A stretch of DNA of 64,000 bases from Thermoplasmatales archaeon SW_10_69_26. GTDB lineage: Archaea; Thermoplasmatota; SW-10-69-26. Below the pieces are notes generated by a model. The model made no database searches. It saw only the letters and a program-made list of their open reading frames with translations, and had not been told where the DNA came from. The translations under genes were made by a program, and so were the position numbers. Numbering within the stretch: position 1 is the stretch's first letter; each line of letters begins with the position of its first letter. Below are positions 1,225 through 57,716 of this stretch, piece after piece. The stretch lies in assembly GCA_003009755.1 (NCBI GenBank), contig PXUB01000032.1:65408-129407 (forward strand), in the 5' to 3' direction.

Positions 1225-1343
1225 CCCCGGCGTCCCCGTCGATCCGGTCCCCGGAGATCGCCGGGGGCCGGTCTCCTCTCCTTCTCCGGATCTCGCGGCT
1301 CCGACACCGTTTTGAATGGGGAACGGCTACCGCCGCTGCTACC

Positions 1344-1689
1344 GGGCGGGTAGCCGGGCTTGGATGTTCCTGCGCCCTTCGGGCGTACTCGCTGGGGACC
1401 GGGACGGTCCCTCGCAGGCGACGGCTTTCGGTGCCGAACCGAAGGTTCCATGGCGCCCGTCTCGTTCACACGCCACGCACTCTGGGCGGGTAGCCTAGCT
1501 TGGATATTCGTACGCCCTTCGGGCGTACTCGACCGAGACCGCCTCCGGCGCGCTCGGTCAGGCGACGGCCTTCGGAGCCGACCGAAGGCCGTATCAAGGA
1601 CCACACGATACGCACCTTCACCCTGGGCGACGGCCTTCGGAGCCGACCGAAGGCCGTATCAAGGACCACACGATACGCACCTTCACCCT
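1344..1689 (+). repeat. Tandem array of three units (about 140, 141 and 65 bp) upstream of tRNA-Arg; units carry copies of the tRNA 5' part and anticodon arm interleaved with UUCG-type hairpins
   Basis: Units start at 1344, 1484 and 1625 with GGGCGGGTAGCC(T/G)GGCTTGGAT, which matches tRNA-Arg nt 1-22. Each continues with AGGCGACGGCCTTCGGAGCC (anticodon arm) extended to an 11-bp palindrome ACGGCCTTCGG/CCGAAGGCCGT. Inserted hairpins differ between units but keep their pairing, e.g. gtacgccc-ttcg-ggcgtac. Confidence 0.8.
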
Positions 1690-1764
1690 GGGCGGGTAGC
1701 CTAGCTTGGATAAGGCGACGGCCTTCGGAGCCGTAGATCAGGGGTTCGAATCCCTTCCCGCCCG
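1690..1764 (+). tRNA. tRNA-Arg (anticodon TCG)
   Basis: Cloverleaf folded by hand: acceptor GGGCGGG/CCCGCCC, D-arm GCCT..AGGC, anticodon stem ACGGC/GCCGT with loop CTTCGGA (anticodon TCG), T-arm AGGGG-TTCGAAT-CCCTT, discriminator G; no encoded CCA. Confidence 0.85.
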
Positions 1765-2123
1765 TACCGCGAAGAGGAAGGGATGAGAACCCCCTGGGGT
1801 TCGTGCTGAGATCCGGTGGAGATCGCTCGGATCTCAGCAGAGTACGAGGCGAGCAGAGCGAGCCTCGTACGGAAATCCCTTCCCGCCCGTACCGCGAAGA
1901 GGAAGGGATGAGAACCCTTGGGTTCGTCCCGAGAGACGATTCAACCGTGCGTCTCTCGGGAGAGGACGGATCTCTGATCCGTCCGGAAATCCCTTCCCGC
2001 CCGTACCGCGAAGAGGAAGGGATGAGAACCCTTGGGTTCGTGCTGAGGCGCGGTGGAGATGGTCGCGTCTCAGGAGACCCCGGATCTCTGATGCGGGCGG
2101 AGGTCCCCTTCCCGCCCGCTTCC
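1748..2123 (+). repeat. About 3.3 tandem units of ~118 bp downstream of tRNA-Arg; each starts with the tRNA 3' end (T-loop and acceptor 3' strand), then 38 bp of conserved flank and two variable hairpins
   Basis: Unit starts at 1748, 1872 and 1987, with a partial at 2105. Constant part: AATCCCTTCCCGCCCG-TACCGCGAAGAGGAAGGGATGAGAACCCTTGGGTTCGT, containing CCCTTCC/GGAAGGG and GAACCC/GGGTTC stems. Variable part: two hairpins per unit whose sequences differ but stay palindromic, e.g. gctgagatccg..cggatctcagc versus cccgagagacg..cgtctctcggg. Confidence 0.8.
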
Positions 2124-4040
2124 TCAGCTATCCTCGTCGTCTCGCACGATCGCGCTGACGAGCGTGAGGGCGGACAACGCGGCGAACACGCCGACGACCG
2201 CCCAGCTCGCCACGCCGAGCTGCAGACCCTCGATCGGCCCGTCGGTGTGGTCCTCACGGTCGTCGGCTTGGGGATCGACGAACCGCGAGGGCTGGGGGTC
2301 TTCCTCGACCGTGAGGACCGAGGACAGGCCGGCCAGCGTGTTGGCCGTCCGGTAGAAGCGGACCGCCGTCGACGGGTTCTCGCTGGTGCTGGCGAACTCG
2401 AACATCGCCACCGGCAGGATCGGCTCGACGTCCAGGCCGCGAGCCTCCTGGATGCTGAGGGCGGCTTGCTGGCGGCTGGCGTTCACCTTCGCGGGGGAGG
2501 GCTCGCCGTTGCGTTGCTCGAGCGTCAGCGAGGCCAGCACCTGGGCCTCGGCTGCCTCGATGATCGCGGCGGCATGGAACCCACGCTCGCGGTCCTTGTT
2601 GGCCTCCTGCAGGGCGTCCTTCGCCGGCTGCGGGTCGCCAGTGTCGCCGCGGACCGAGCTGCTGTAGGCGATCAGTTCGCGCGCCAGGTTCGCGAACTCG
2701 TTGGCCAGGCGCTCGGGATCCTCGGGCAGCGGCGGCTCGTCGCTGAACGGCTGGGACAGATCCAGCCACCAGTGGACGGTGTTGGACCGCTCGAAGGCCC
2801 AGGCCGACTGCAACAGAACCTGATCCACGGAGCCGGTCCCTTGCAGCGCTTCGCGAGCCTGCTGGAGGCGGCGTTCGGCGTCGGAGACGCGCTCTTGGCC
2901 GGCGCCGACCGTGTAGAGGGTGTGCAGACCCTCGACCTCGGCCTCGCTCGCGGTCTCGCGCGCCTCGCGGACGCTCTCGGCGGCGTGCTCGACCGTGGCC
3001 TCGAGGAAGTCGTCGCTGGCGCCGCGCTCGTAGTAGGTCGCCAGCAGGCGAGCGTGGCGTTCCCGGATCGCCGACTGGAAGGCCTTGCTCGCTGCGCTGT
3101 AGAACCGCTCGTCGGACCACAGCGCCTCGGCCTCCTCGTGCGAGGCGACGGCCGCCTCGATCGCCGACCGGGCGCGCTCCTCGGCGCGGTCCGGCATCTC
3201 GGTGGTGTTCACCTTGTCCCAGGTCTCGTACACGCGCTCGCTGCGGTCGACGATGTCACGCGTTCGCGGGCCCAGGATGTCGGCGTACTGCGCCGTCGTC
3301 GGCGGTTCGCCGAGCTCGGGCTGGGGCAGCTCGCGGTCGGTGGCGACCTCGACCAGCTCCTCGATCGCGGCCACCGATCGGCACGTGATGTTCAGCTCCT
3401 CCTCGCAGAACGAGGGCACGTGGACGGGGGCCTCGCCGTACTCCTCCTGCTCGGGGGGCAGCCGGGGCGTGTAGTTGGCTTCCCCGTCGGGGACGAGGAA
3501 GATGCTGGCGCCCGCGTCCTCGGCAGCCTTGGCCTTCTCGAGGATGCCGCCCACCGGCCCGATCGAACCGTCGGGGTTGATCGTGCCCGTGGCCATCACG
3601 TCCTCGCGGATCTGCCAGGGATCCTCGCCCTCCGCCAGGTGGGCGTTCTGCATCGCGACCGTCGCCGCCAACGTCATCACGGCGCCCGCCGAGGGGCCCG
3701 AGATGATCGGCGAATCGCTACGCACCGTGTAGAACAGATCGTGGCTGGCCAAGCCCTGCCCGGCGAGCCCGGCGGCCACGCGCGAGGCGATGCGGGCCGA
3801 GCCCTGGAGGTCGGTCCCCGACAGGGGTCGGGTGTCCATGAACACGTGACCCGATCCGTCGGATGAGGCGCGGACCTCGATCGAGGCGTTGGCGCCGACG
3901 AGTTCGCCCGTCTCGTTCAACGACACCGCCAGCGCGGTGACGCGGGCTGGCTGGGTCAGGTTCATCGGCGTGGCGCCCACCGGGGCCGACAGCGCCGGTC
4001 CCAGGAGCACGACCACCGCGAGCAGGCGGGCGACGGACAC
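2124..4040 (-). CDS. Secreted, membrane-anchored S16 (Lon-like proteolytic domain) serine peptidase
   Basis: N-terminal signal peptide MSVARLLAVVVLLGPALSA. Lon proteolytic-domain motifs GPSAGAVMTLAATVAMQ...TGTINPDGSIGPVGGILEKAKAAEDAGASIFLVP follow. A long helical region and a C-terminal TM helix plus acidic tail (VVGVFAALSALTLVSAIVRDDEDS) complete the protein. Confidence 0.7.
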   Translation of the reverse strand: MSVARLLAVVVLLGPALSAPVGATPMNLTQPARVTALAVSLNETGELVGANASIEVRASSDGSGHVFMDTRPLSGTDLQGSARIASRVAAGLAGQGLASHDLFYTVRSDSPIISGPSAGAVMTLAATVAMQNAHLAEGEDPWQIREDVMATGTINPDGSIGPVGGILEKAKAAEDAGASIFLVPDGEANYTPRLPPEQEEYGEAPVHVPSFCEEELNITCRSVAAIEELVEVATDRELPQPELGEPPTTAQYADILGPRTRDIVDRSERVYETWDKVNTTEMPDRAEERARSAIEAAVASHEEAEALWSDERFYSAASKAFQSAIRERHARLLATYYERGASDDFLEATVEHAAESVREARETASEAEVEGLHTLYTVGAGQERVSDAERRLQQAREALQGTGSVDQVLLQSAWAFERSNTVHWWLDLSQPFSDEPPLPEDPERLANEFANLARELIAYSSSVRGDTGDPQPAKDALQEANKDRERGFHAAAIIEAAEAQVLASLTLEQRNGEPSPAKVNASRQQAALSIQEARGLDVEPILPVAMFEFASTSENPSTAVRFYRTANTLAGLSSVLTVEEDPQPSRFVDPQADDREDHTDGPIEGLQLGVASWAVVGVFAALSALTLVSAIVRDDEDS

Positions 4041-8262: not shown

Positions 8263-8340
8263 AACATTTTCTTTCTCAGAGGGGCCTCGACCCCTCCCGA
8301 CCCCCGGAAAAAGAAAATCTTCGGCAAGAAGATGCGAGGG
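8263..8340 (+). terminator. Nested stem-loop with T/A-rich arms immediately after the ribosomal-protein operon; likely transcription terminator
   Basis: TTTTCTTTCTC-agaggggcctcgacccctc-...-GAAAAAGAAAA with an inner GAGGGG/CCCCTC stem, followed by ATCTTC-ggca-AGAAGAT; starts right after the rps27ae stop. Confidence 0.45.
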
Positions 8341-8951
8341 TTCGCCTGGCGGCAGGAACCCTCGCAATCCGGCCGAAGCGGAGCTTCGGCCTCTCCGGAG
8401 ACCGAACGGTGTCGCCGGTCTCCGGAAGAAAACGGGGGTCGGGAGCGTCCGAAGGCGCCGGTGCCGACCGTCTGGCGCCTCCGGAGAGGACGGATCTTCC
8501 ATCCGTCCGAAACGCAGGCCCCCTCGGCGCTGATCTTGGGCGCGGTTGGATCTTCGCGTTGGGCTATCTTTGCTTGACGGGCAGCGACGCGTTCGTGGTG
8601 TGGCTGCAGGTCCGGTCGGCACCGCCGGCGGGGCCGGTGGGCAACGCGGCGTCTCCGCAGACCACGCCGGAGGTCACGCAAGCGCCTGTTGCTCTCCTTG
8701 GAACCCGTGCAGGCAGCGTGCAGAGTCCGTCCTCGTCCTCCTCGTCTCTGACCGTCCTTGGGTCTCCTGACATCGCTTCTCTCCCCTCTGTGCCCCCGTG
8801 CCTCTGTGGCTCTGTGTGATCACCGCCAACCGCGCTCGCGGCCCCGCCGATGCGACAGCATCGCACATTTCGACGCTTGTTGAAAGCTTCGAGAGCTCTG
8901 AGAAATCCTTCAAGTCCCTCGCGGCGAACGGTGGCGGTGGTGAGACAGACG

Positions 8952-24155: not shown

Positions 24156-24683
24156 GTGCGTAACTTATCGTGGCGTCCGATACTAACTCAAATAGGGGTG
24201 GGATGCCCTGTCAGCCTTGACGCTGACCCCGACCAAAAGGAACAACGACGCCTCGCCGCAGGCCAAGATCTACTGGACGGCAAACGCCAAGCCGACATCG
24301 CCGAAGGCTACGGCGCCACCCGCACCACCGCCCACCGCTGGGCGCACACCGTCGGAACCGAAGGCCTCGACGGCCTGAAAAGCACACGCACCAACGCCGG
24401 ACGACCCCCGAAACTCGACGCCGAGAACAAACAACGCCTCGCCGAACTTCTCCAACGAGGCGCCCAAGCCCACGGCTGGGACACCGATCTGTGGACCCGC
24501 AAACGTGTGGCCCAGCTGATCGACCGGGCGTTCGACGTCGACTACTCTCCCCGACACTGCTCGCGGATTCTGCACGAGATCGGGTTCCGCCCGGTCAAAC
24601 CCAAGCGCGTGGCCAACGAAAAGGACGAGGCCGAAAAACAGCGCTGGCTGGCCGAGGAGGCTGGAGAGCTGAAAAAAACCTAG
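24156..24683 (+). CDS. IS630-family transposase, N-terminal HTH part (orfA)
   Basis: Helix-turn-helix DNA-binding region ...GKRQADIAEGYGATRTTAHRWAH...; ends at TAG just after GCTGAAAAAAACC. Confidence 0.8.
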   Translation: MRNLSWRPILTQIGVGCPVSLDADPDQKEQRRLAAGQDLLDGKRQADIAEGYGATRTTAHRWAHTVGTEGLDGLKSTRTNAGRPPKLDAENKQRLAELLQRGAQAHGWDTDLWTRKRVAQLIDRAFDVDYSPRHCSRILHEIGFRPVKPKRVANEKDEAEKQRWLAEEAGELKKT

Positions 24684-28855: not shown

Positions 28856-29960
28856 GCACATAAACTCAGTTCTGACCTGACCGAGCGTCCCATCAATCCA
28901 ACAACCGAACGTTGTGCACGATCTCCCGCGCCAACACCGTGTTCCGCCGACTGGTCCGCAGCCGGCAGCGGAGACGATCGCCGAACAGCAGCTTGACCGT
29001 GGCAAACCGGGACTCCGCGGTCACCCGGCGACGGTACACGTCCTGAAACCGATTGGGGAAGTTGAGCGCGTATCGGGTCTTCTTCTCGAACGGATCGGAA
29101 GGGAACCGCCACCAGCGAGCGTTGCTCTTCGGCTTGAAGTAGGGCTGCAACCCGGCGTCTTTGACGAGCTGGCAGTTGTCCCGGGTCCAATACGCCTTGT
29201 CGCCCAACACGGCGTGGACGGCTGCTTCGTCAGGCACCTCGTCGATCAGCTCGGGCAGCTCTTGGCTGTCGTGCCGGTGCCCGGGCGTCAACGAGACAGC
29301 CAACGTGGCCCGGGTCTTGACGCCGTTGAGCACGTGCGTTTTGGCGTACTGGCGAGGCTCAGCGTCGTGTTCTCGCGCATGCCAGGCACCTTGTCCGGTG
29401 AGCACGAGACCCGAGGCATCCACGCTGGCGTTCTCTTCGAGGCTCCAGAAGGGCTGAGCGGTCTCCGCCAGCACTCGCTGAAGCGTGTTCGTGATCCCCG
29501 TTCTTGGTTGTACTGGCACAGCGTGTTGAAATGGGGCACGTGCTCGATGTCCAGATGGGGCTTGAGCAGGTAAAGCAGGCCTTCGGTGCGGCGGAAGCTG
29601 AGATCGAAGTACGCCCGGACCAGCAAGCCCAAGATGACGGTGCGGCGCGGGATCCGGGGCCGGCCGGTGTTGTAGGACCAGTTGTGGATGCAGCTGGCAT
29701 CCACGAGGTCTCGGAGACGGTGCACCACGCGCACCATCTCGCGGGCTTGCCACGTGTTGTATGTGCTCCAGTCGAAGCCGTTGTCGGTGGGTTCAAGCGT
29801 GTGCTGTTCTTCTGTTGTCACTCGGGCATCCATCCCAGCTCGATGGCTCTCGAGCGGGCTTCTCAGGGATGCCCCGTTTTGTCAACGGCAGTGGTTTGTA
29901 TCGCGTCAGCTGGGCTCGTAGCCCACTTTATGTGCGAGCCCCGGCCGAAGGCTGAGTTTC
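28856..29960 (-). mobile_element. IS4/IS5-superfamily insertion sequence, ends approximate
   Basis: DDE_Tnp_1-type transposase between short matching termini (left GCACATAAACTCAG at 28856-28869; right carries TTTATGTGC at 29926-29934 and CTGAGTTT at 29952-29959). The exact ends could not be resolved by eye. Confidence 0.55.
28893..29833 (-). pseudogene. IS4/IS5-superfamily DDE transposase split over two frames (frameshift near 29530-29600)
   Basis: N-terminal frame MDARVTTEEQHTLEPTDNGFDWSTYNTWQAREMVRVVHRL... ends about 29530. The C-terminal frame carries ...GDKAYWTRDNCQLVKDAGLQPYF...VYRRRVTAESRFATVKLLFG... (DDE and YRRR/ExxF signature). Confidence 0.7.
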
Positions 29961-38324: not shown

Positions 38325-40493
<2,169 letters not shown>

Positions 40494-40499
40494 GTTGCT

Positions 40500-40640
40500 C
40501 GGCTGATCCGGAAGTCCGCTCGCTCCACCGCTTCGGGGGTCGCTTGCGTCCTTCCGGATGCCGGACGAACGCTCGACGTTGCGGGTCTCGCGTTCGTCCT
40601 CTCCGCAGACCGGCCTCTCCAGCGGCATGCCGGTCTGCGG
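40500..40640 (+). other. Three consecutive perfect stem-loops between the gyrB stop and the gyrB 3' remnant
   Basis: TCCGGAAG...CTTCCGGA, GGACGAACGC...GCGTTCGTCC and CCGCAGACCGG...CCGGTCTGCGG, each 8-11 bp stems. Confidence 0.55.
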
Positions 40641-40641
40641 A

Positions 40642-40744
40642 CCAAGCCGAGCAGCTGTTCGACGTGCTCATGGGTGACGAGGTGGAGCCTCGCCGCGAGT
40701 TCATCATGGAGCACGCGGATGAGGTCCAGGTGCTGGACGTTTGA
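40642..40744 (+). pseudogene. Diverged duplicate of the last 34 codons of gyrB (3' gene remnant)
   Basis: Encodes [33 protein letters not shown] versus gyrB ...[33 protein letters not shown]. The first 33 nt are identical; after that mostly synonymous substitutions (about 88% nt identity). Confidence 0.8.
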
Positions 40745-40820
40745 CGACTGAACCTCATCCGATGCATCCGCGCAGGCTGGAGCCCGAAGCCTCAAGCCGG
40801 TCGGAGGGCCTCGCGAGTCC

Positions 40821-41192
40821 ATGGATCGTCGCCGGGGCCTCGTGGCCCTCGGCGTCGGCCTCGTCGTGTCGTTGGCCGTCGTCTGGGCCTTCTTCGCCAC
40901 GCTGCTCCCGTTTGCGGGGCCCAGCACTGGTCATCCGTGGCGAGGCGGCGTCCCGTTCGTCGCCGTCGTCTTCGCCGGCTTCGGTCTCGCCCGGCGGATC
41001 GAGGGATCCGGGCGGCGGATCGGCGTCCTCGTGGGGCTCCCGGGCGCTGCGATCGGCGGCGTGCTGGGCGTGCTCGCCGCCCTGCGCAGGGCCCACCTGC
41101 TCGCTGTTGCAGGCCTCGTCGTCGTCTACCTGGCGTCGGCGAGCCTCGGGGGCTGGCTCGGGGGTCGGCGCGGGATGGTGGCCGGCCGCTAG
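40821..41192 (+). CDS. Hypothetical small membrane protein (123 aa, about 4 TM)
   Basis: MDRRRGLVALGVGLVVSLAVVWAFFATLLPFAG...; the TAG stop is formed by the TA target plus the first G of the MITE. Confidence 0.4.
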   Translation: MDRRRGLVALGVGLVVSLAVVWAFFATLLPFAGPSTGHPWRGGVPFVAVVFAGFGLARRIEGSGRRIGVLVGLPGAAIGGVLGVLAALRRAHLLAVAGLVVVYLASASLGGWLGGRRGMVAGR

Positions 41193-41562
41193 ACTGCCGG
41201 CTGTGCTTGGGTTAAGCTCTCGCTCGGCCTCAGGCGGTGAAAGCGCGGAGCCGAGACGAAGGAGTAGCCGGAGGCTACTTCGATGTCGGAGACCGTGGGA
41301 CCGGAAATGTTCTGGTGCGCCGGTCTGAGGCGGGCAATCTCGTTGTCGCCCCCTGAGATCTCGCCCGTCCGAGCGATCTCAGGCACGCCCGGATCTCTGA
41401 TCCGGGCAGTGTCCGTCGAAAACCCACAGGGGGTTTCCTTCCTCGGGCTCCGCGACCTTGCCTCGCTCCCTCGCACGAGCCCTCCGGGCTCGTACTCTCG
41501 GCAGACCGTGCCCGGTCTCCCGAGACCGGCGCGAGAGCTTAAGCAAAACACGTCCGGCAGTT
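41192..41562. mobile_element. MITE (371 bp) of the same IS630-derived family as 17834-18258, in inverted orientation, flanked by TA
   Basis: Left end TA-GACTGCCGGCTGTGCTTGGGTTAAGCTCTCGC... is the reverse complement of the right end of the first MITE; the right end ...CGTCCGGCAGTT-TA is degenerate; no ORF. Confidence 0.7.
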
Positions 41563-55447: not shown

Positions 55448-55942
55448 TTGGCTCTGTCGAAGCCGCCGGGCGTGAGGGTGGCCGCCGAGAGGCATCGCGA
55501 GAACCGAGGCGGCGGGCGAGACGTCGGGCTGCTCGCAATCGCCGCCCTCGGCCTGCTCGTGTCCACGTACTTCACGGCCGTGACCTACCAGTGGGTGCGG
55601 CCGGACGCCTCGTGGATCCCGCAGGTCTGCCGGATGGACGAGAAGACGTGCGCCCGCATCGTGGACACGGGCTACGGGCAGGCCTTCGGTGCGCCGAACT
55701 CCGTGTTCGGCATCGCCTGGTACCTCGCCGTCGCCGGCGTCACGCTGTACCGCTGGACCGGCGACCCGTTGCTGCCCTGCTCGGTGTTGATTCTGCTCGC
55801 GGCGGGCGTCGTCGCTTTCAGCGTGTACCTCGCCTGGGCGCTCGTCCAGCGCTTGGGCGTGCACTGCCCGCTTTGCTACCTCTCCCACACCCTCAACGTC
55901 GGCGTGCTCGTCGGCTTCGTCGGCCTGTGCGCGATCGGTTGA
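55448..55942 (+). CDS. Vitamin K epoxide reductase (VKOR)-family membrane protein
   Basis: 4-5 TM helices; CxxC redox motif in the last TM region (LGVHCPLCYLSH) and a Cys pair in the first loop (QVCRMDEKTCARI). Confidence 0.6.
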   Translation: MALSKPPGVRVAAERHRENRGGGRDVGLLAIAALGLLVSTYFTAVTYQWVRPDASWIPQVCRMDEKTCARIVDTGYGQAFGAPNSVFGIAWYLAVAGVTLYRWTGDPLLPCSVLILLAAGVVAFSVYLAWALVQRLGVHCPLCYLSHTLNVGVLVGFVGLCAIG

Positions 55943-55973
55943 CTGGACGAACATCCTTTTCGGCACGCCATCC

Positions 55974-57716
55974 ATGGTGACCCGTCCCATGCCCTCGTCC
56001 AGCGTGATCGATCCTCGACCCGGGGACGACGAGAACTGGTACCGCGAGGACCCGCCCTTGCAGCAGCTGCTGGCTCTACACGTTGACGAGGCCACGCTGG
56101 GAGCCGCCGAGCACCGGCTCGACGACCTCGGCGAGCTGGCGCCGGCCGACCTGGACCGGTGGGCGCGCGAGGCCGACCGCCACGAACCGACGCTCGAGCG
56201 CCGATCCCCGACGGGCGAACGCGTGGACCGCGTCGACTTCCATCCCGCCTACGAGAACCTGCGGCTGGCCGCGCGCATCAACGGCGTGTTCACCGCCAGC
56301 TGGCACGAGATGGGCGAGGCCGAGCGCGCCCCGCGAGCGCTCACGTTCGCGCTGGGCTACCTCTACGCGCAGGCCGAAGCCGGCTACTACTGCCCGGCCT
56401 GCATGACCGACGGGGCCGCCTTCGTGCTCGACCGCCACGCCCCCGAGCCGCTGGCCGAGCGCTTCGTCCCCCGCCTGGTCAGCCGGGACCCCGACGAGGG
56501 GATCGAGGGCGCCATGTACCTGACGGAGAAGGAGGGGGGTTCCGACGTGGGCGCCAGCACGCGCACCCGAGCCCGGCAGGCCGAGGACGGCACCTGGCGC
56601 CTGACCGGCGAGAAGTGGTTCGCCTCCAACTGCACCGCCGAGGTCGCCATGGCCCTGGCGCGCATGCCCGACGGCGAGGAGGGCACCGAAGGGCTGGGCC
56701 TGTTCCTCGTTCCGCGGCACCTGTCCAACGGCTCCCCCAACCCCGGCCTCCACCTCGAGCGGCTCAAGGACAAGCTCGGCGTCCAGAGCATGCCCACCGG
56801 CGAGATCGTGCTCGACGAGGCCCACGCCCACCTCGTCCAGGGCGCCGGCTCCGGGTTCAAGGCGATGGCCGAGATGGTGAACCTCTCCCGCCTGTACAAC
56901 GCCGTCGCCAGCGTCGCGGTGGCCCGCCGGGCCCTGCGCGAGGGCCAACGCGCCGGCCGCCAACGCGAGACCTTCGGCCAGCCCCTGCACGAGCACGCGC
57001 TGTTCCTGCGCGACCTCGTCGAGCTCACCGTCGACGTCGAGGGCGGCCTCGCCTTCACGCTCGACCAGGCCGAGGTCTTCGACCGCTGGGCCGAGGGCGA
57101 GGAAGACGCCCGCGCCCCGCTGCGGATCCTGACCCCGTGCGCGAAGGCGATGACCGCCAAGCTCGGCGTCGCGGCCGCCAGCGAGGGCTGCGAGCTGCTG
57201 GGCGGGCAAGGCTACATCGAGGAGTACGTGACCCCGCGCCTTTTGCGCGACGCCCAGGTCTTGCCGATCTGGGAGGGCACGACGAACATCCAGGCGCTGG
57301 ATCTGCTGCGCGCCGTCGCCCGGGACCGGGCGCTGCCCGGCTTCCTCGCCCACAGCTCGGCCCGGTTGGCCGAGGCCGAGGCCGAGGGCCACGAGGGGCT
57401 CGAACCCGCGATCGCTCGCGTCCGCGAGGGGTACGAGCGGATCGAGCAGGCCGGCGAGCGGCTGGCCTCCGTCGACCGCGATACAGCGGAGGCGATGGCC
57501 ATCGATCTCACGCGGGACGCCTACCACGTCCACGCCGCCGCGCTGCTGGCCCGCCGAGCCGCCCACCACCCGGACGACGATCGAGCGCGCGAGGTGGCCC
57601 ACCTGTATGCGGCCCGCCACGTCGCCGAGGACCGCAGCCTCGGCCGACGCGCGGTCCGGCAGGCGCTGGCCGACCACGGGACCGAGATCGCATACCCAGC
57701 CACGTCACACAGCTAG
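55974..57716 (+). CDS. AidB-like acyl-CoA dehydrogenase
   Basis: 580 aa; ACAD fold patterns ...YYCPACMTDGAAFVL..., ...GAMYLTEKEGGSDVGA..., ...GGQGYIEEYVTPRLLRDAQVLPIWEGTTNIQALD. Confidence 0.85.
   Translation: MVTRPMPSSSVIDPRPGDDENWYREDPPLQQLLALHVDEATLGAAEHRLDDLGELAPADLDRWAREADRHEPTLERRSPTGERVDRVDFHPAYENLRLAARINGVFTASWHEMGEAERAPRALTFALGYLYAQAEAGYYCPACMTDGAAFVLDRHAPEPLAERFVPRLVSRDPDEGIEGAMYLTEKEGGSDVGASTRTRARQAEDGTWRLTGEKWFASNCTAEVAMALARMPDGEEGTEGLGLFLVPRHLSNGSPNPGLHLERLKDKLGVQSMPTGEIVLDEAHAHLVQGAGSGFKAMAEMVNLSRLYNAVASVAVARRALREGQRAGRQRETFGQPLHEHALFLRDLVELTVDVEGGLAFTLDQAEVFDRWAEGEEDARAPLRILTPCAKAMTAKLGVAAASEGCELLGGQGYIEEYVTPRLLRDAQVLPIWEGTTNIQALDLLRAVARDRALPGFLAHSSARLAEAEAEGHEGLEPAIARVREGYERIEQAGERLASVDRDTAEAMAIDLTRDAYHVHAAALLARRAAHHPDDDRAREVAHLYAARHVAEDRSLGRRAVRQALADHGTEIAYPATSHS

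Follow-up and report, generated by a model that had tools for sequence, protein, structure and literature searches.

One of the closest known counterparts of a tRNA gene followed by repeats of its own end is the tyrT-linked repeat array of E. coli with its rtT RNA, in which tandem units lie 3' of a tRNA and each carries the 3'-terminal nucleotides of that tRNA. Here we analyse a comparable arrangement in a 64-kb window, that is, the whole stretch of DNA under study, from 'Thermoplasmatales archaeon SW_10_69_26', a halophilic Thermoplasmatales MAG with 68% G+C that the original prediction had taken for a haloarchaeon. At this locus the 16-nt 3' end of a tRNA-Arg occurs at 1749, 1874 and 1988 and, as with rtT, the units probably originated through unequal recombination and may be transcribed together with the tRNA. 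The resemblance to rtT, which had been put forward as the closest analogy, does not extend to membership in that family: the match to RF00391 at 1762-1892 (+) has only 17.8 bits (E 1.8), where the gathering score is 45, and a scan of Rfam at the gathering threshold returned no RtT match. The locus further differs from rtT in its archaeal host, in having arrays on both sides of the gene, in the lack of sequence or structure homology, and in that its variable part is a dispersed repeat also found far from any tRNA.

In this dispersal the variable part resembles REP, BIME and REPIN sequences, which are short G+C-rich extragenic palindromes present in many copies on both strands and located after gene ends, and which form clusters with fixed short linkers, inverted pairs and copy numbers that differ among strains. 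REP and BIME sequences are known to promote tandem duplications (PMC2817692, PMC3733652), and computational work has described REP-like palindromes in archaea (PMC12306157). Dispersed palindromes of this type are present within the 64-kb window. Those at 8366-8429 (-) and 8445-8513 (+) are inverted relative to each other, and the copies keep the GA and GGA linkers, but the array downstream of the tRNA is arranged head-to-tail. Unlike the REPs of one genome, which are near-identical, the stems found here vary widely with their structure kept, and the repeated module consists of two unlike hairpins in fixed order. The modules carry no GTAG/CGTC tag, and scanning of 14 ORFs turned up no RAYT-type transposase.

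The two-hairpin plan is shared with the double-hairpin and repetitive hairpin-forming elements of mitochondria and with the GC clusters of yeast, in which two adjacent hairpins have conserved stems and variable loops. Mitochondrial double-hairpin elements are dispersed between genes, are inserted in the loops of structural-RNA genes and are suspected to be mobile by an unknown mechanism; those of Allomyces have no flanking target duplication (PMC2800124, PMC4478555). Unlike the present module they belong to the organelle genomes of eukaryotes, there is no sequence relationship, and an association with partial duplicates of the target gene has not been described for them. MITEs, too, are small, non-coding and dispersed and show insertion polymorphism between strains. 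At the one site where module boundaries could be read, neither terminal inverted repeats nor a target-site duplication were present, and the modules showed no similarity to IS elements in the window.

A tRNA-Arg(TCG) gene between partial copies of itself

A single tRNA-Arg(TCG) was called at 1689/1690-1764/1765 by both ARAGORN and Rfam (RF00005, 66.7 bits), and the gene at 1690-1764 (+) is the sole functional tRNA of the locus. Its sequence is identical in the related lineage L005 and differs at 2 nt in L032. In agreement with the earlier view that the gene is neither split nor intron-containing, this intact copy alone was found by ARAGORN and by the Rfam tRNA model, even at E<=10. The upstream units have no T arm, the downstream units have no nt 1-52, and inspection of the module ends by eye revealed no bulge-helix-bulge motif. 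Pattern searches placed tRNA nt 1-22 at three positions (1344, 1484 and 1690), the anticodon-arm segment at four (1417, 1561, 1626 and 1714) and CCCTTCCCGCCCG at four positions of the locus, and a 44-nt segment made up of the 16-nt tRNA 3' end and 28 nt of flank is present in three exact copies (1749, 1874 and 1988). Shuffled controls yielded between about 0 and 0.5 copies of such pieces, which bears out the claim that the intact gene stands amid its own 5' and 3' fragments. The repeat periods are 140 nt and 65 nt upstream and 125/114/115 nt downstream. An assembly artefact is ruled out, since upstream units U1 and U2 with the tRNA were recovered in the independent assembly L001, and downstream units B and C with the terminal fragment in L003 and L004. 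A matching architecture is found in independent assemblies of other lineages (L005, L006 and L032).

The neighbours of the locus are DUF892, a Lon_C-like protease, an H+-PPase and an rpoE-spt4-S24e-S27ae cluster. The short-read contigs L001, L002, L003-L006 and L031 all terminate within the tRNA locus.

The upstream units (1344-1689) are composed of promoter/leader sequence and tRNA nt 1-44, their spacers aligning with promoter/leader sequences. A promoter-like motif, CCGTTTTGAATGGGG, at 1307-1321 (+), followed by a leader that extends to 1343, has homologues, leader included, directly 5' of an uninterrupted tRNA-Arg in L031 and L032. From this homology we infer that 1307-1321 was the ancestral position of the tRNA promoter, with a putative promoter function. 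Unit U1 (1344-1483, +) comprises a decayed copy of tRNA nt 1-23 (1344-1366), a double-hairpin module in inverse orientation (1367-1415), tRNA nt 24-44 (1416-1436) and, beyond these, a palindrome extension that has degenerated and a leader-like spacer. Unit U2 (1484-1625, +) has the same parts in better condition: tRNA nt 1-23 occupies 1484-1506 and nt 24-44 occupies 1560-1580, with an inverted module between them (1507-1559), followed by an extension that completes an 11+6+11 palindrome (1565-1592) and by a leader-like spacer (1593-1624). With the module removed, U1 matches the tRNA at 39/44 nt and U2 at 44/44 nt, the modules being placed exactly between tRNA nt 23/24, in the D loop. Between strains, U1 diverges faster than U2. 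Unit U3 (1626-1690, +) repeats the preceding 65 bp (1561-1625) in tandem without a single difference (TRF: 100% identity, 2.1 copies). Of the three upstream units that were each expected to carry tRNA nt 1-22, U1 and U2 do so and the third does not; likewise, the 11-bp palindrome expected in every upstream unit is perfect in U2 and U3 only and degenerate in U1. The 'UUCG hairpins' noted between the upstream pieces correspond to the double-hairpin module in inverse orientation.

The three downstream units (1765-2118) are each composed of 3' flank and tRNA nt 60-75, with which they end. Unit A (1765-1889, +) opens with an 11-nt trailer, an inverted T-arm copy (1776-1793) and a direct copy of tRNA nt 53-59, continues with module A (1804-1873) and closes with tRNA nt 60-75, repeated at 1874-1889, so that T-arm sequence runs in the order direct-inverted-direct (1741-1758, 1776-1793, 1796-1803). 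Unit B (1890-2003, +) contains module B (1927-1987) and a tRNA 3' fragment (1988-2003). Unit C (2004-2118, +), the orthologue of the single downstream unit of L005, contains a decaying module C (2041-2101) and a degenerate terminal tRNA 3' fragment (2102-2118) with a 13-nt core at 2106. The downstream modules are in forward orientation, opposite to the upstream ones, and lie exactly between tRNA nt 59/60, in the T loop; module deletion restores 23/23 nt of the tRNA in units A and B. All three units share one lineage-specific 11-nt trailer, which argues for a local origin of the downstream array. The array is not a CRISPR, as had been judged: its 'spacers' show homology among themselves and with copies elsewhere, and its repeat is a tRNA end with flank.

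Direct repeats of tRNA ends beside an intact tRNA recall displaced att or CIME-like fragments, where the intact gene carries the newest end and the oldest ends lie outermost. The pieces could accordingly be scars of serial tRNA-anchored insertions (by att accretion, or by homology-anchored DNA from related lineages), each of which would bring in a fresh tRNA end and displace the previous one outward. The ancestral promoter does lie on the outermost 5' fragment, and the outermost 3' fragment is the most decayed. The break points fall in or beside the anticodon arm and the T loop, which are sublocations used by tRNA-targeting integrases. The 84-nt tail of U2 is identical to that of L005 at 83/84 positions, compared with 83.5% identity in the adjacent coding DNA, and a similar displacement is seen at gyrB (below), where the functional last 108 nt and a hairpin cluster would be the new DNA and the old 3' end the displaced one. 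However, a mere 98-125 nt separate the repeats, with no element or attP counterpart between or around them, and no integrase is annotated among the neighbours within ~4-6 kb on either side. Searches of phages and plasmids by blastn gave whole-tRNA matches only, none of four exact scans of viral contigs yielded a relevant match, and flank and palindrome had no phage, plasmid or viral-contig matches. Unlike att scars, the fragments here have a repeat lodged within them, the spacers of the upstream units are the gene's own leader copied in diverged form, and the 65-bp unit is a plain tandem duplication; the common trailer of the downstream units also speaks for an origin in place. We therefore regard serial insertion as unlikely.

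Architecture and covariation of the double-hairpin module

The module is ~50-70 nt long and consists of a first hairpin (HP1; 11-13-bp stem, 11-14-nt loop), a GA linker, a second hairpin (HP2; 8-9-bp stem) and a GGA/GAA tail. The hairpins had been described as differing almost completely between units. This overstates their divergence, since the copies share a stem base (T-S-C-N-GAG / CTC-N-S-A), the GA linker and the GGA tail, HP1 of unit A is similar to HP1 of unit C, and HP2 of unit B is similar to HP2 of unit C. Nor are the hairpins perfect 8-11-bp palindromes throughout: the stems are perfect in units A and B (12-bp and 9-bp), whereas unit C carries G.G, C.C and G.T mismatches. More generally, distal units (U1, C and the last modules of L032) accumulate mismatches.

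The proposal that structure is conserved through compensatory variation is supported. Across 13 module copies, pairing holds in 95.3% of cells and both partners have changed in 17/21 pairs, values reached in 0/500 shuffles, and slid controls pair at <=45.5%. Between HP1 of A and HP1 of C, the compensatory replacement is block-wise and involves 4 consecutive pairs. Plus- and minus-strand folding energies are similar, and mismatches (G.T 7 vs A.C 4) have no strand bias; nothing here points to RNA-level selection on the tRNA strand. In addition, units with 100% identical 44-54-nt flanks carry modules that differ by 30-100%, which simple duplication followed by point mutation does not explain and which needs either turnover of modules or concerted evolution of flanks.

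Some parts of the downstream array are conserved beyond this. Three lineages with no more than 67-84% identity in coding DNA share the 26-nt inverted T-arm segment GGAAGGGATGAGAACCCTTGGGTTCG without any difference. An A-type module also adjoins the tRNA in L032, with stems nearly unchanged relative to the window (one compensatory pair change and one G.U). These two features look like purifying selection, i.e. function.

Dispersed copies and differences between strains

A covariance model (R1) trained solely on units A, B and C and on L005 found further copies in the window as well as in the relatives L032, L006 and L001. In total the window contains 9 modules, of which 5 belong to the tRNA locus and 4 lie elsewhere; both strands are represented, and every copy is intergenic. 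The inverted module of U2 was matched on the minus strand (1562-1505) with 18.9 bits (E 1e-3), and its counterpart in L001 with 22.2 bits. The four copies away from the tRNA were outside the training set and have E values of 7e-14 to 3e-6. Two lie downstream of S27ae: one at 8366-8429 (-; 53.5 bits, E 7e-14), in the loop of an older hairpin, and one at 8445-8513 (+; 37.3 bits, E 4e-9), a clean insertion of ~64 nt. A third (40558-40644, -; 30.6 bits, E 4e-7) lies between the gyrB stop codon and a displaced gyrB 3' end, and the fourth (41349-41412, +; 27.6 bits, E 3e-6) lies in a long structured non-coding region, where the R1 match spans 41320-41412 and the HP1 and HP2 stems occupy 41352-41407. 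HP2 of unit B (GGACGGATC..GATCCGTCC) is found again at 8487-8508 and the HP2 type of unit C at 41387-41407. In L006 and L032, modules occur in tandem with no intervening tRNA fragment, and in L007 a two-hairpin insert lies within the terminal loop of a conserved helix. The window as a whole contains 29 perfect hairpins of >=9 bp, compared with 3-10 in shuffles, and by a crude gene map 17/29 are in non-coding DNA.

Both modules downstream of S27ae are missing in the related strains L039-L042. For the copy at 8445-8513, the single site at which exact boundaries were obtained from a filled-versus-empty comparison, the empty site reads GGCAGCG^ACGCAGG and the filled site GAGCG[TCCGAAGG...GTCCGA(A)]ACGCAGG; the target is not duplicated, nor do the two ends form inverted repeats. 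An enzyme that moves the module was not identified: the 14 ORFs scanned included a DDE transposase of IS4/IS5 type and an HTH protein resembling that of IS630, and no Y1 transposase. At the tRNA locus itself, upstream units are present in the window, L001 and L005 and absent from L031 and L032, the number of downstream units varies by whole units (1 in L005, 2 in L032, 3 in the window), and the exact 65-bp duplication that forms U3 is missing from the sister strain L001. The suggestion that the locus is a hotspot of slippage and recombination fits these observations.

The gyrB gene provides a parallel. Its old 3' end has been displaced, and relatives have no such duplication; the functional last 108 nt differ from the displaced copy at 11 sites, 9/11 of them third codon positions, and the relative L044 agrees with the displaced copy at 8/11 sites. 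This parallel duplication hints at a more general process.

The dispersal of the module bears directly on whether the hairpins serve the tRNA. Structured small RNAs in the manner of rtT would be produced if the units were co-transcribed with the tRNA and freed by tRNA-processing enzymes recognising the tRNA-end fragments, with selection acting on the hairpins as RNA. There is no oligo-T run within 1344-2125, so read-through from the promoter-like motif is possible; each downstream unit, A included, folds into a closing stem and three hairpins; and the strong covariation, the C(UUCG)G loops and several G.T pairs on the + strand, the conservation of the 26-nt segment and A-type stems across lineages, and the weak RtT match would all suit such RNAs. 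Yet the module occurs in both orientations and at unrelated loci, lies antisense to the tRNA transcript in U1 and U2, and is missing at the orthologous site in related strains, so that the hairpins do not appear to be the tRNA-specific device originally envisaged. Folding energies have no strand asymmetry, a TTTT run directly follows the tRNA in L032, unit C and the distal L032 modules are decaying, and the RtT score falls far short of its gathering score. This account strikes us as distinctly improbable. Because the module is also found elsewhere in the genome, we see the locus as a duplication and insertion hotspot and not as a dedicated tRNA-linked RNA device.

A purely local replication artefact, in which fold-back and template-switch synthesis at the palindromic arms of the tRNA gives rise to inverted and direct copies and to palindromes de novo, and templated repair from the opposite arm keeps stems perfect, with no mobile element and no selection, would account for the direct-inverted-direct order of the T-arm copies, the extension of the anticodon arm to a perfect 11+6+11 palindrome, the block-wise replacement of 4 consecutive pairs and the lack of strand bias in mismatches. 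De novo palindromes would not, however, resemble unlinked copies in sequence and architecture (E down to 7e-14), and one module is a discrete indel bounded as in the family consensus. We give this explanation very little weight.

A proposed history of the locus and its implications

With moderate confidence, we favour the interpretation that one working tRNA-Arg stands amid non-functional partial tandem duplications of itself, which have been colonised by a dispersed, lineage-specific, REP/BIME-like double-hairpin repeat. The truncated tRNA copies would have arisen by slippage or unequal recombination at short similarities, candidates being GGCTCCG (1297-1303) with GGAGCCG of the tRNA, and GGCG for the 65-bp copy. 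The module would then have entered the dispensable tRNA copies, preferring the loops of pre-existing hairpins, and unequal crossing-over between the direct repeats of 44-54 nt would later have amplified some whole units and removed others. The arms may stay complementary because propagation or retention acts on a folded single strand, or because each arm can serve as the repair template for its partner; a need for a tRNA-specific small RNA would not be the cause. Should the units be co-transcribed with the tRNA, the hairpins would form a structured leader and trailer cut off by RNase P and tRNase Z. Several observations weigh against this interpretation: no enzyme that would move the module was identified among the ORFs scanned, exact boundaries come from a single filled-versus-empty site, modules differ between units whose flanks are identical, and the 26-nt segment, the A-type stems and the 84-nt tail of U2 are conserved between lineages. 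The precision of insertion in the D and T loops could likewise reflect RNA selection instead of a preference of the insertion mechanism.

A bolder interpretation, which we consider a minority possibility, is that halophilic Thermoplasmatota may carry in this module a novel kind of non-autonomous mobile element, one that has no terminal inverted repeats or target duplication and enters hairpin loops, including those of structural-RNA genes. Its spread would be coupled to an end-duplication that saves the invaded gene, and GGAAGGGATGAGAACCCTTGGGTTCG would be machinery, not debris. Candidate cases of invaded genes would be the tRNA-Arg, at either end, and gyrB in its last 108 nt, where the functional end resembles a diverged allele.

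If confirmed, these observations would add to the archaea, in which hairpin repeats of this kind have barely been described so far, a repeat family that is structurally conserved, variable in sequence and apparently mobile. Tandem tRNA fragments can arise without integrases, which calls for caution in calling every tRNA fragment an att site. For assembly, the locus matters in that short-read contigs of these organisms break at this tRNA-Arg. Modules and unit counts differ among close strains and are therefore possible strain markers in hypersaline metagenomes. Finally, a mechanism common to gyrB and the tRNA, should there be one, would constitute a route by which essential genes tolerate invasion.

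Organization of the tRNA-Arg(TCG) array

The window has a G+C content of 68% and encodes a Lon-like protein with a 100% identical match in the metagenome-assembled genome "Thermoplasmatales archaeon SW_10_69_26". The host is therefore an uncultured halophilic member of Thermoplasmatota, and not the haloarchaeon assumed in the original prediction. The intact tRNA-Arg(TCG) gene proposed there, together with a check by tRNA finders, was borne out: ARAGORN and Rfam each give one such gene, at 1690-1764 (+). The array built around it has a DUF892 gene (736-1224, +) on its upstream side and, downstream, the gene of a Lon_C-like S16 protease (2124-4040, -). Elsewhere, an ARAGORN "tRNA-???" with a 2-nt anticodon (57053-57148) is missed by the Rfam tRNA model and is almost certainly a false positive; it falls within a long high-GC3 ORF (55791-57716, +).

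The proposed tandem repetition of tRNA pieces and hairpins was confirmed with corrections, and counts of tRNA-piece patterns far exceed the shuffled expectation in pattern searches. Upstream lie the 140-nt unit U1 (1344-1483, +) and the unit U2 (1484-1625, +), with a 140-nt period, while what had been taken for a third unit is a plain, exact repeat (1626-1690, +) of the last 65 bp of U2. Three units, A, B and C, follow downstream of the tRNA with start-to-start spacings of 125, 114 and 115 nt, and the array terminates in a last tRNA-end fragment (2102-2118, +). In the linear numbering of the 75-nt gene, U2 consists of tRNA nt 1-23, a 53-nt insert, tRNA nt 24-44, a 12-nt extension that makes the anticodon arm an 11+6+11 palindrome, and a 32-nt spacer. 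Each downstream unit comprises an 11-nt trailer, an 18-nt copy of the T arm that is inverted except for its central GA, a direct copy of tRNA nt 53-59, an insert of 61-70 nt with two hairpins (HP1 and HP2), and tRNA nt 60-75. Removing the inserts in silico restores exact tRNA sequence in U2 (44/44 nt) and in units A and B (23/23 nt), and these two downstream units are predicted to fold as three hairpins inside a closing stem, GGAAGGGAT/ATCCCTTCC. An assembly artefact can be ruled out, because other lineages share the array architecture and parts of the array recur in assemblies made independently from other samples.

The T arm and 3' end of the tRNA are also able to pair with the trailer over 18 bp (1741-1793) with a central tandem G.A/A.G mismatch, and in the minimum-energy fold of the tRNA plus unit A this pairing replaces the T arm. 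The same tandem mismatch is present in HP1 of L006, a locus from a related lineage.

A dispersed double-hairpin module

In a scan of the whole window, 29 perfect hairpins with 9 bp or more were counted, where shuffled sequence gives 3-10; pairs of hairpins like those of the array lie at 8333-8508, 40602-40641 and 41352-41407. We trained a covariance model only on HP1-GA-HP2 of units A, B and C and of the one unit in the related locus L005, and searched the whole window with filters off. Four module copies outside the training set were recovered, at 8429-8366 (-; 53.5 bits, E 7e-14), 8445-8513 (+; 37.3 bits, E 4e-9), 40644-40558 (-; 30.6 bits, E 4e-7) and 41320-41412 (+; 27.6 bits, E 3e-6). The U2 insert, likewise outside the training set, was matched on the minus strand (1562-1505; 18.9 bits, E 1e-3; 22.2 bits for the allele of sister strain L001). 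The UUCG-closed hairpins reported upstream are therefore present, but they are the downstream module in inverse orientation rather than a separate element. Module orientation is unambiguous, as the 53.5-bit copy scores 15.9 bits on the reverse strand. Tests of strand-specific constraint at the RNA level gave 7 G.T versus 4 A.C mismatches in module stems, a difference below 5% between plus- and minus-strand MFE of whole regions, and, in per-module folding of non-independent copies, the module strand as the more stable one in 10/15.

Across 13 module copies, 95.3% of alignment cells are paired and 17 of 21 pairs show two-sided changes, a result equalled by none of 500 shuffles, while slid registers reach at most 45.5% pairing. 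This alignment was fitted to the covariance model, which favours structure, although 9 of the 13 copies lie outside the training set. The compensatory change claimed for the hairpins thus stands, but the hairpins are not specific to the tRNA, as the module occurs at four other sites in the window. Near-invariant positions (HP1 pair 3 C-G, HP1 pair 7 G-C, HP2 pair 4 C-G and the GA linker) show that the copies are homologous, beyond likeness of shape. In addition, the HP2 hairpin of unit B is found again at 8487-8508 and the one shared by unit C and L005 at 41387-41407.

In its behaviour the module comes closest to REP/BIME elements (PMC2817692, PMC3733652, PMC12306157), from which it differs in having no defining tag, uniform consensus or known transposase. 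Fungal and sponge mitochondria have elements of similar kind, known as double-hairpin and repetitive hairpin-forming elements; mitochondrial double-hairpin elements lack target duplications and are located in RNA-gene loops (PMC2800124). The analogy drawn with the E. coli tyrT/rtT repeats holds for the tandem repetition of tRNA-end fragments, but an Rfam search does not place the array in the rtT family. The exclusions made from sequence were upheld: the array does not test as a CRISPR, the locus does not test as a split or intron-containing tRNA, and there is no element, integrase or attP that would point to att scars. Other identities were rejected as well, namely a MITE (no terminal inverted repeats or target duplication), guide RNAs of the C/D-box or H/ACA type (the stems are perfect, a pocket is missing and the boxes are approximate at best), a casposon-type insertion (a 16-nt repeat is present, terminal inverted repeats are absent), integron attC-like cassettes (neither cassettes nor integrase) and IS200/IS605-derived elements (two dissimilar hairpins, no conserved flanking tetranucleotide).

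Lon-like protein patterns and a 35-nt tRNA piece had no match in a species-representative genome collection in which this lineage is out of reach, and a metagenome scan with GGAAATCCCTTCCCGCCCG alone gave 23 loci, all chance matches in unrelated, mostly coding DNA. Four exact scans of viral contigs yielded either no match or one chance match at a ribosome-binding site, blastn against phages and plasmids found nothing beyond generic tRNA-Arg matches, and Rfam at permissive E-values produced only sub-threshold chance matches for the array and the other hairpin clusters.

Related loci and the history of the array

Loci from relatives differ in architecture. L032 (Lon-like protein 52% identical to that of the window) lacks upstream units and has a promoter motif, a leader and the tRNA, followed by two downstream units of the window's design, the first with an A-type module; its tRNA lies 1.2 kb from the Lon gene. 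In L031 (69%), a window-like promoter/leader abuts an uninterrupted tRNA 5' half, and at 2128-2267 the tRNA-Arg points the opposite way with respect to the Lon-like gene, which means that the locus was inverted or rearranged in one lineage. L005 (74%; 83.5% nucleotide identity to the window over 6.1 kb of coding DNA) carries the U2 tail, the tRNA, one C-type downstream unit and the terminal fragment, while L006 (74%) has a single T-loop insert with at least 3 hairpins. The 65-bp copy is missing from sister strain L001, where U1 is far more diverged than U2. Six further relatives (L007 and L033-L037; Lon at most about 52%) have other synteny and no tRNA adjoining the Lon gene.

The upstream spacers can be aligned with promoter/leader sequences, so an upstream unit is promoter/leader plus tRNA nt 1-44. 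The unit junction falls at a short similarity (GGCTCCG, 1297-1303, versus GGAGCCG in the tRNA), and U1 occupies the ancestral promoter position. Decay is greatest in the outermost copies, namely U1, unit C, the terminal fragment and the last modules of L032. Together, the relatives' architectures, leader-like spacers and decayed outer copies indicate that the truncated tRNA copies would have arisen by local partial duplications, with whole units gained and lost and modules probably inserted into the dispensable copies.

Conservation within the array is uneven. The window, L005 and L032 share the 26-nt segment GGAAGGGATGAGAACCCTTGGGTTCG without any difference, but not the 11 nt that precede it; between the window and L032, the A-type module shows one compensatory pair change (U-A to G-C), a single G.U and otherwise only loop changes; the U2 tail matches that of L005 at 83/84 positions; and units with identical flanks contain modules that differ by 30-100%. 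To explain these patterns, one needs selection, module turnover, inter-lineage exchange or evolution in concert with the tRNA.

Four related strains (L039-L042) encode an S27ae protein identical to that of the window, and their alignable downstream DNA lacks both modules that the window has there. One site is a clean ~64-nt indel without target duplication (empty, GGCAGCG^ACGCAGG; filled in the window, GAGCG[TCCGAAGG...GTCCGA(A)]ACGCAGG), and the other cluster of modules occupies the loop of a hairpin that L039-L042 already possess. The intergenic region concerned (8263-8951, after the rpoE-spt4-DUF359-S24e-S27ae cluster) is unusually long (~690 nt). The hairpin modules make it exceed its counterpart in related strains by about 176 nt, and the predicted fold of the first 270 nt has an energy of -156 kcal/mol. 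In L007, two HP2-type hairpins are inserted in the terminal loop of helix GGAGTAGCC/GGCTACTTC, which is uninterrupted in the window (about 41265-41285), and L006 and L032 have tandem modules with no intervening tRNA piece.

Among IS genes, the window contains a DDE_Tnp_1 (IS4/IS5-type) transposase (28893-29753, -) and an IS630-like HTH_33/HTH_32 protein (24156-24683, +), neither with sequence similarity to the modules. An IS1595-like DDE transposase fragment (L032 4125-4448, -) directly follows the last, decayed modules of the L032 tRNA-Arg array.

Duplication of the gyrB 3' end

The last 108 nt (40386-40493) of gyrB (38433-40493) are repeated at 40637-40744 with 88% identity, and the intervening 143 nt (40494-40636) consist of hairpins, one module among them. 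The duplication is absent from relatives (L044, L045 and L046), including ones with GyrB 85% and 92% identical; their gyrB stop codon and the sequence flanking it match the downstream copy in the window, so the functional end plus hairpins are the newly gained DNA. The two copies differ mostly at third codon positions (9/11), and at 8 of the 11 sites L044 sides with the displaced copy, which makes the functional end look more like a diverged allele than a copy altered in place. This keeps alive the alternative that gene ends are replaced by incoming DNA. The gyrB duplication follows the same logic as the tRNA-Arg locus.

About 1 kb after gyrB (40494-41561) holds no convincing gene, gyrA being absent there; L044 and L045 share this gap and its synteny (gyrB, gap, cytidylyltransferase, LonB), with poorly conserved gap sequence. 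It includes a strongly structured non-coding region of ~350 nt (41205-41555; MFE -185 kcal/mol) closed by TTAAGCTCTCGC/GCGAGAGCTTAA, an observation that also takes in L007 11880-12260 and L044 about 3800-4000; its 5' ~90 nt are kept in L007 in a different gene context. With no Rfam match even at permissive thresholds, the region may represent an RNA gene with hairpin inserts that is either undescribed or highly divergent.

On balance, the tRNA-Arg locus is probably a duplication and insertion hotspot, in which one working tRNA gene stands amid truncated tandem self-copies that host a mobile, structure-conserved double-hairpin repeat. The hotspot part of the original prediction is thereby supported, but hairpins peculiar to the tRNA are not, since they belong to the dispersed module. 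The locus would gain in significance if it could be shown by what mechanism the module moves and how this is tied to the duplication of gene ends.
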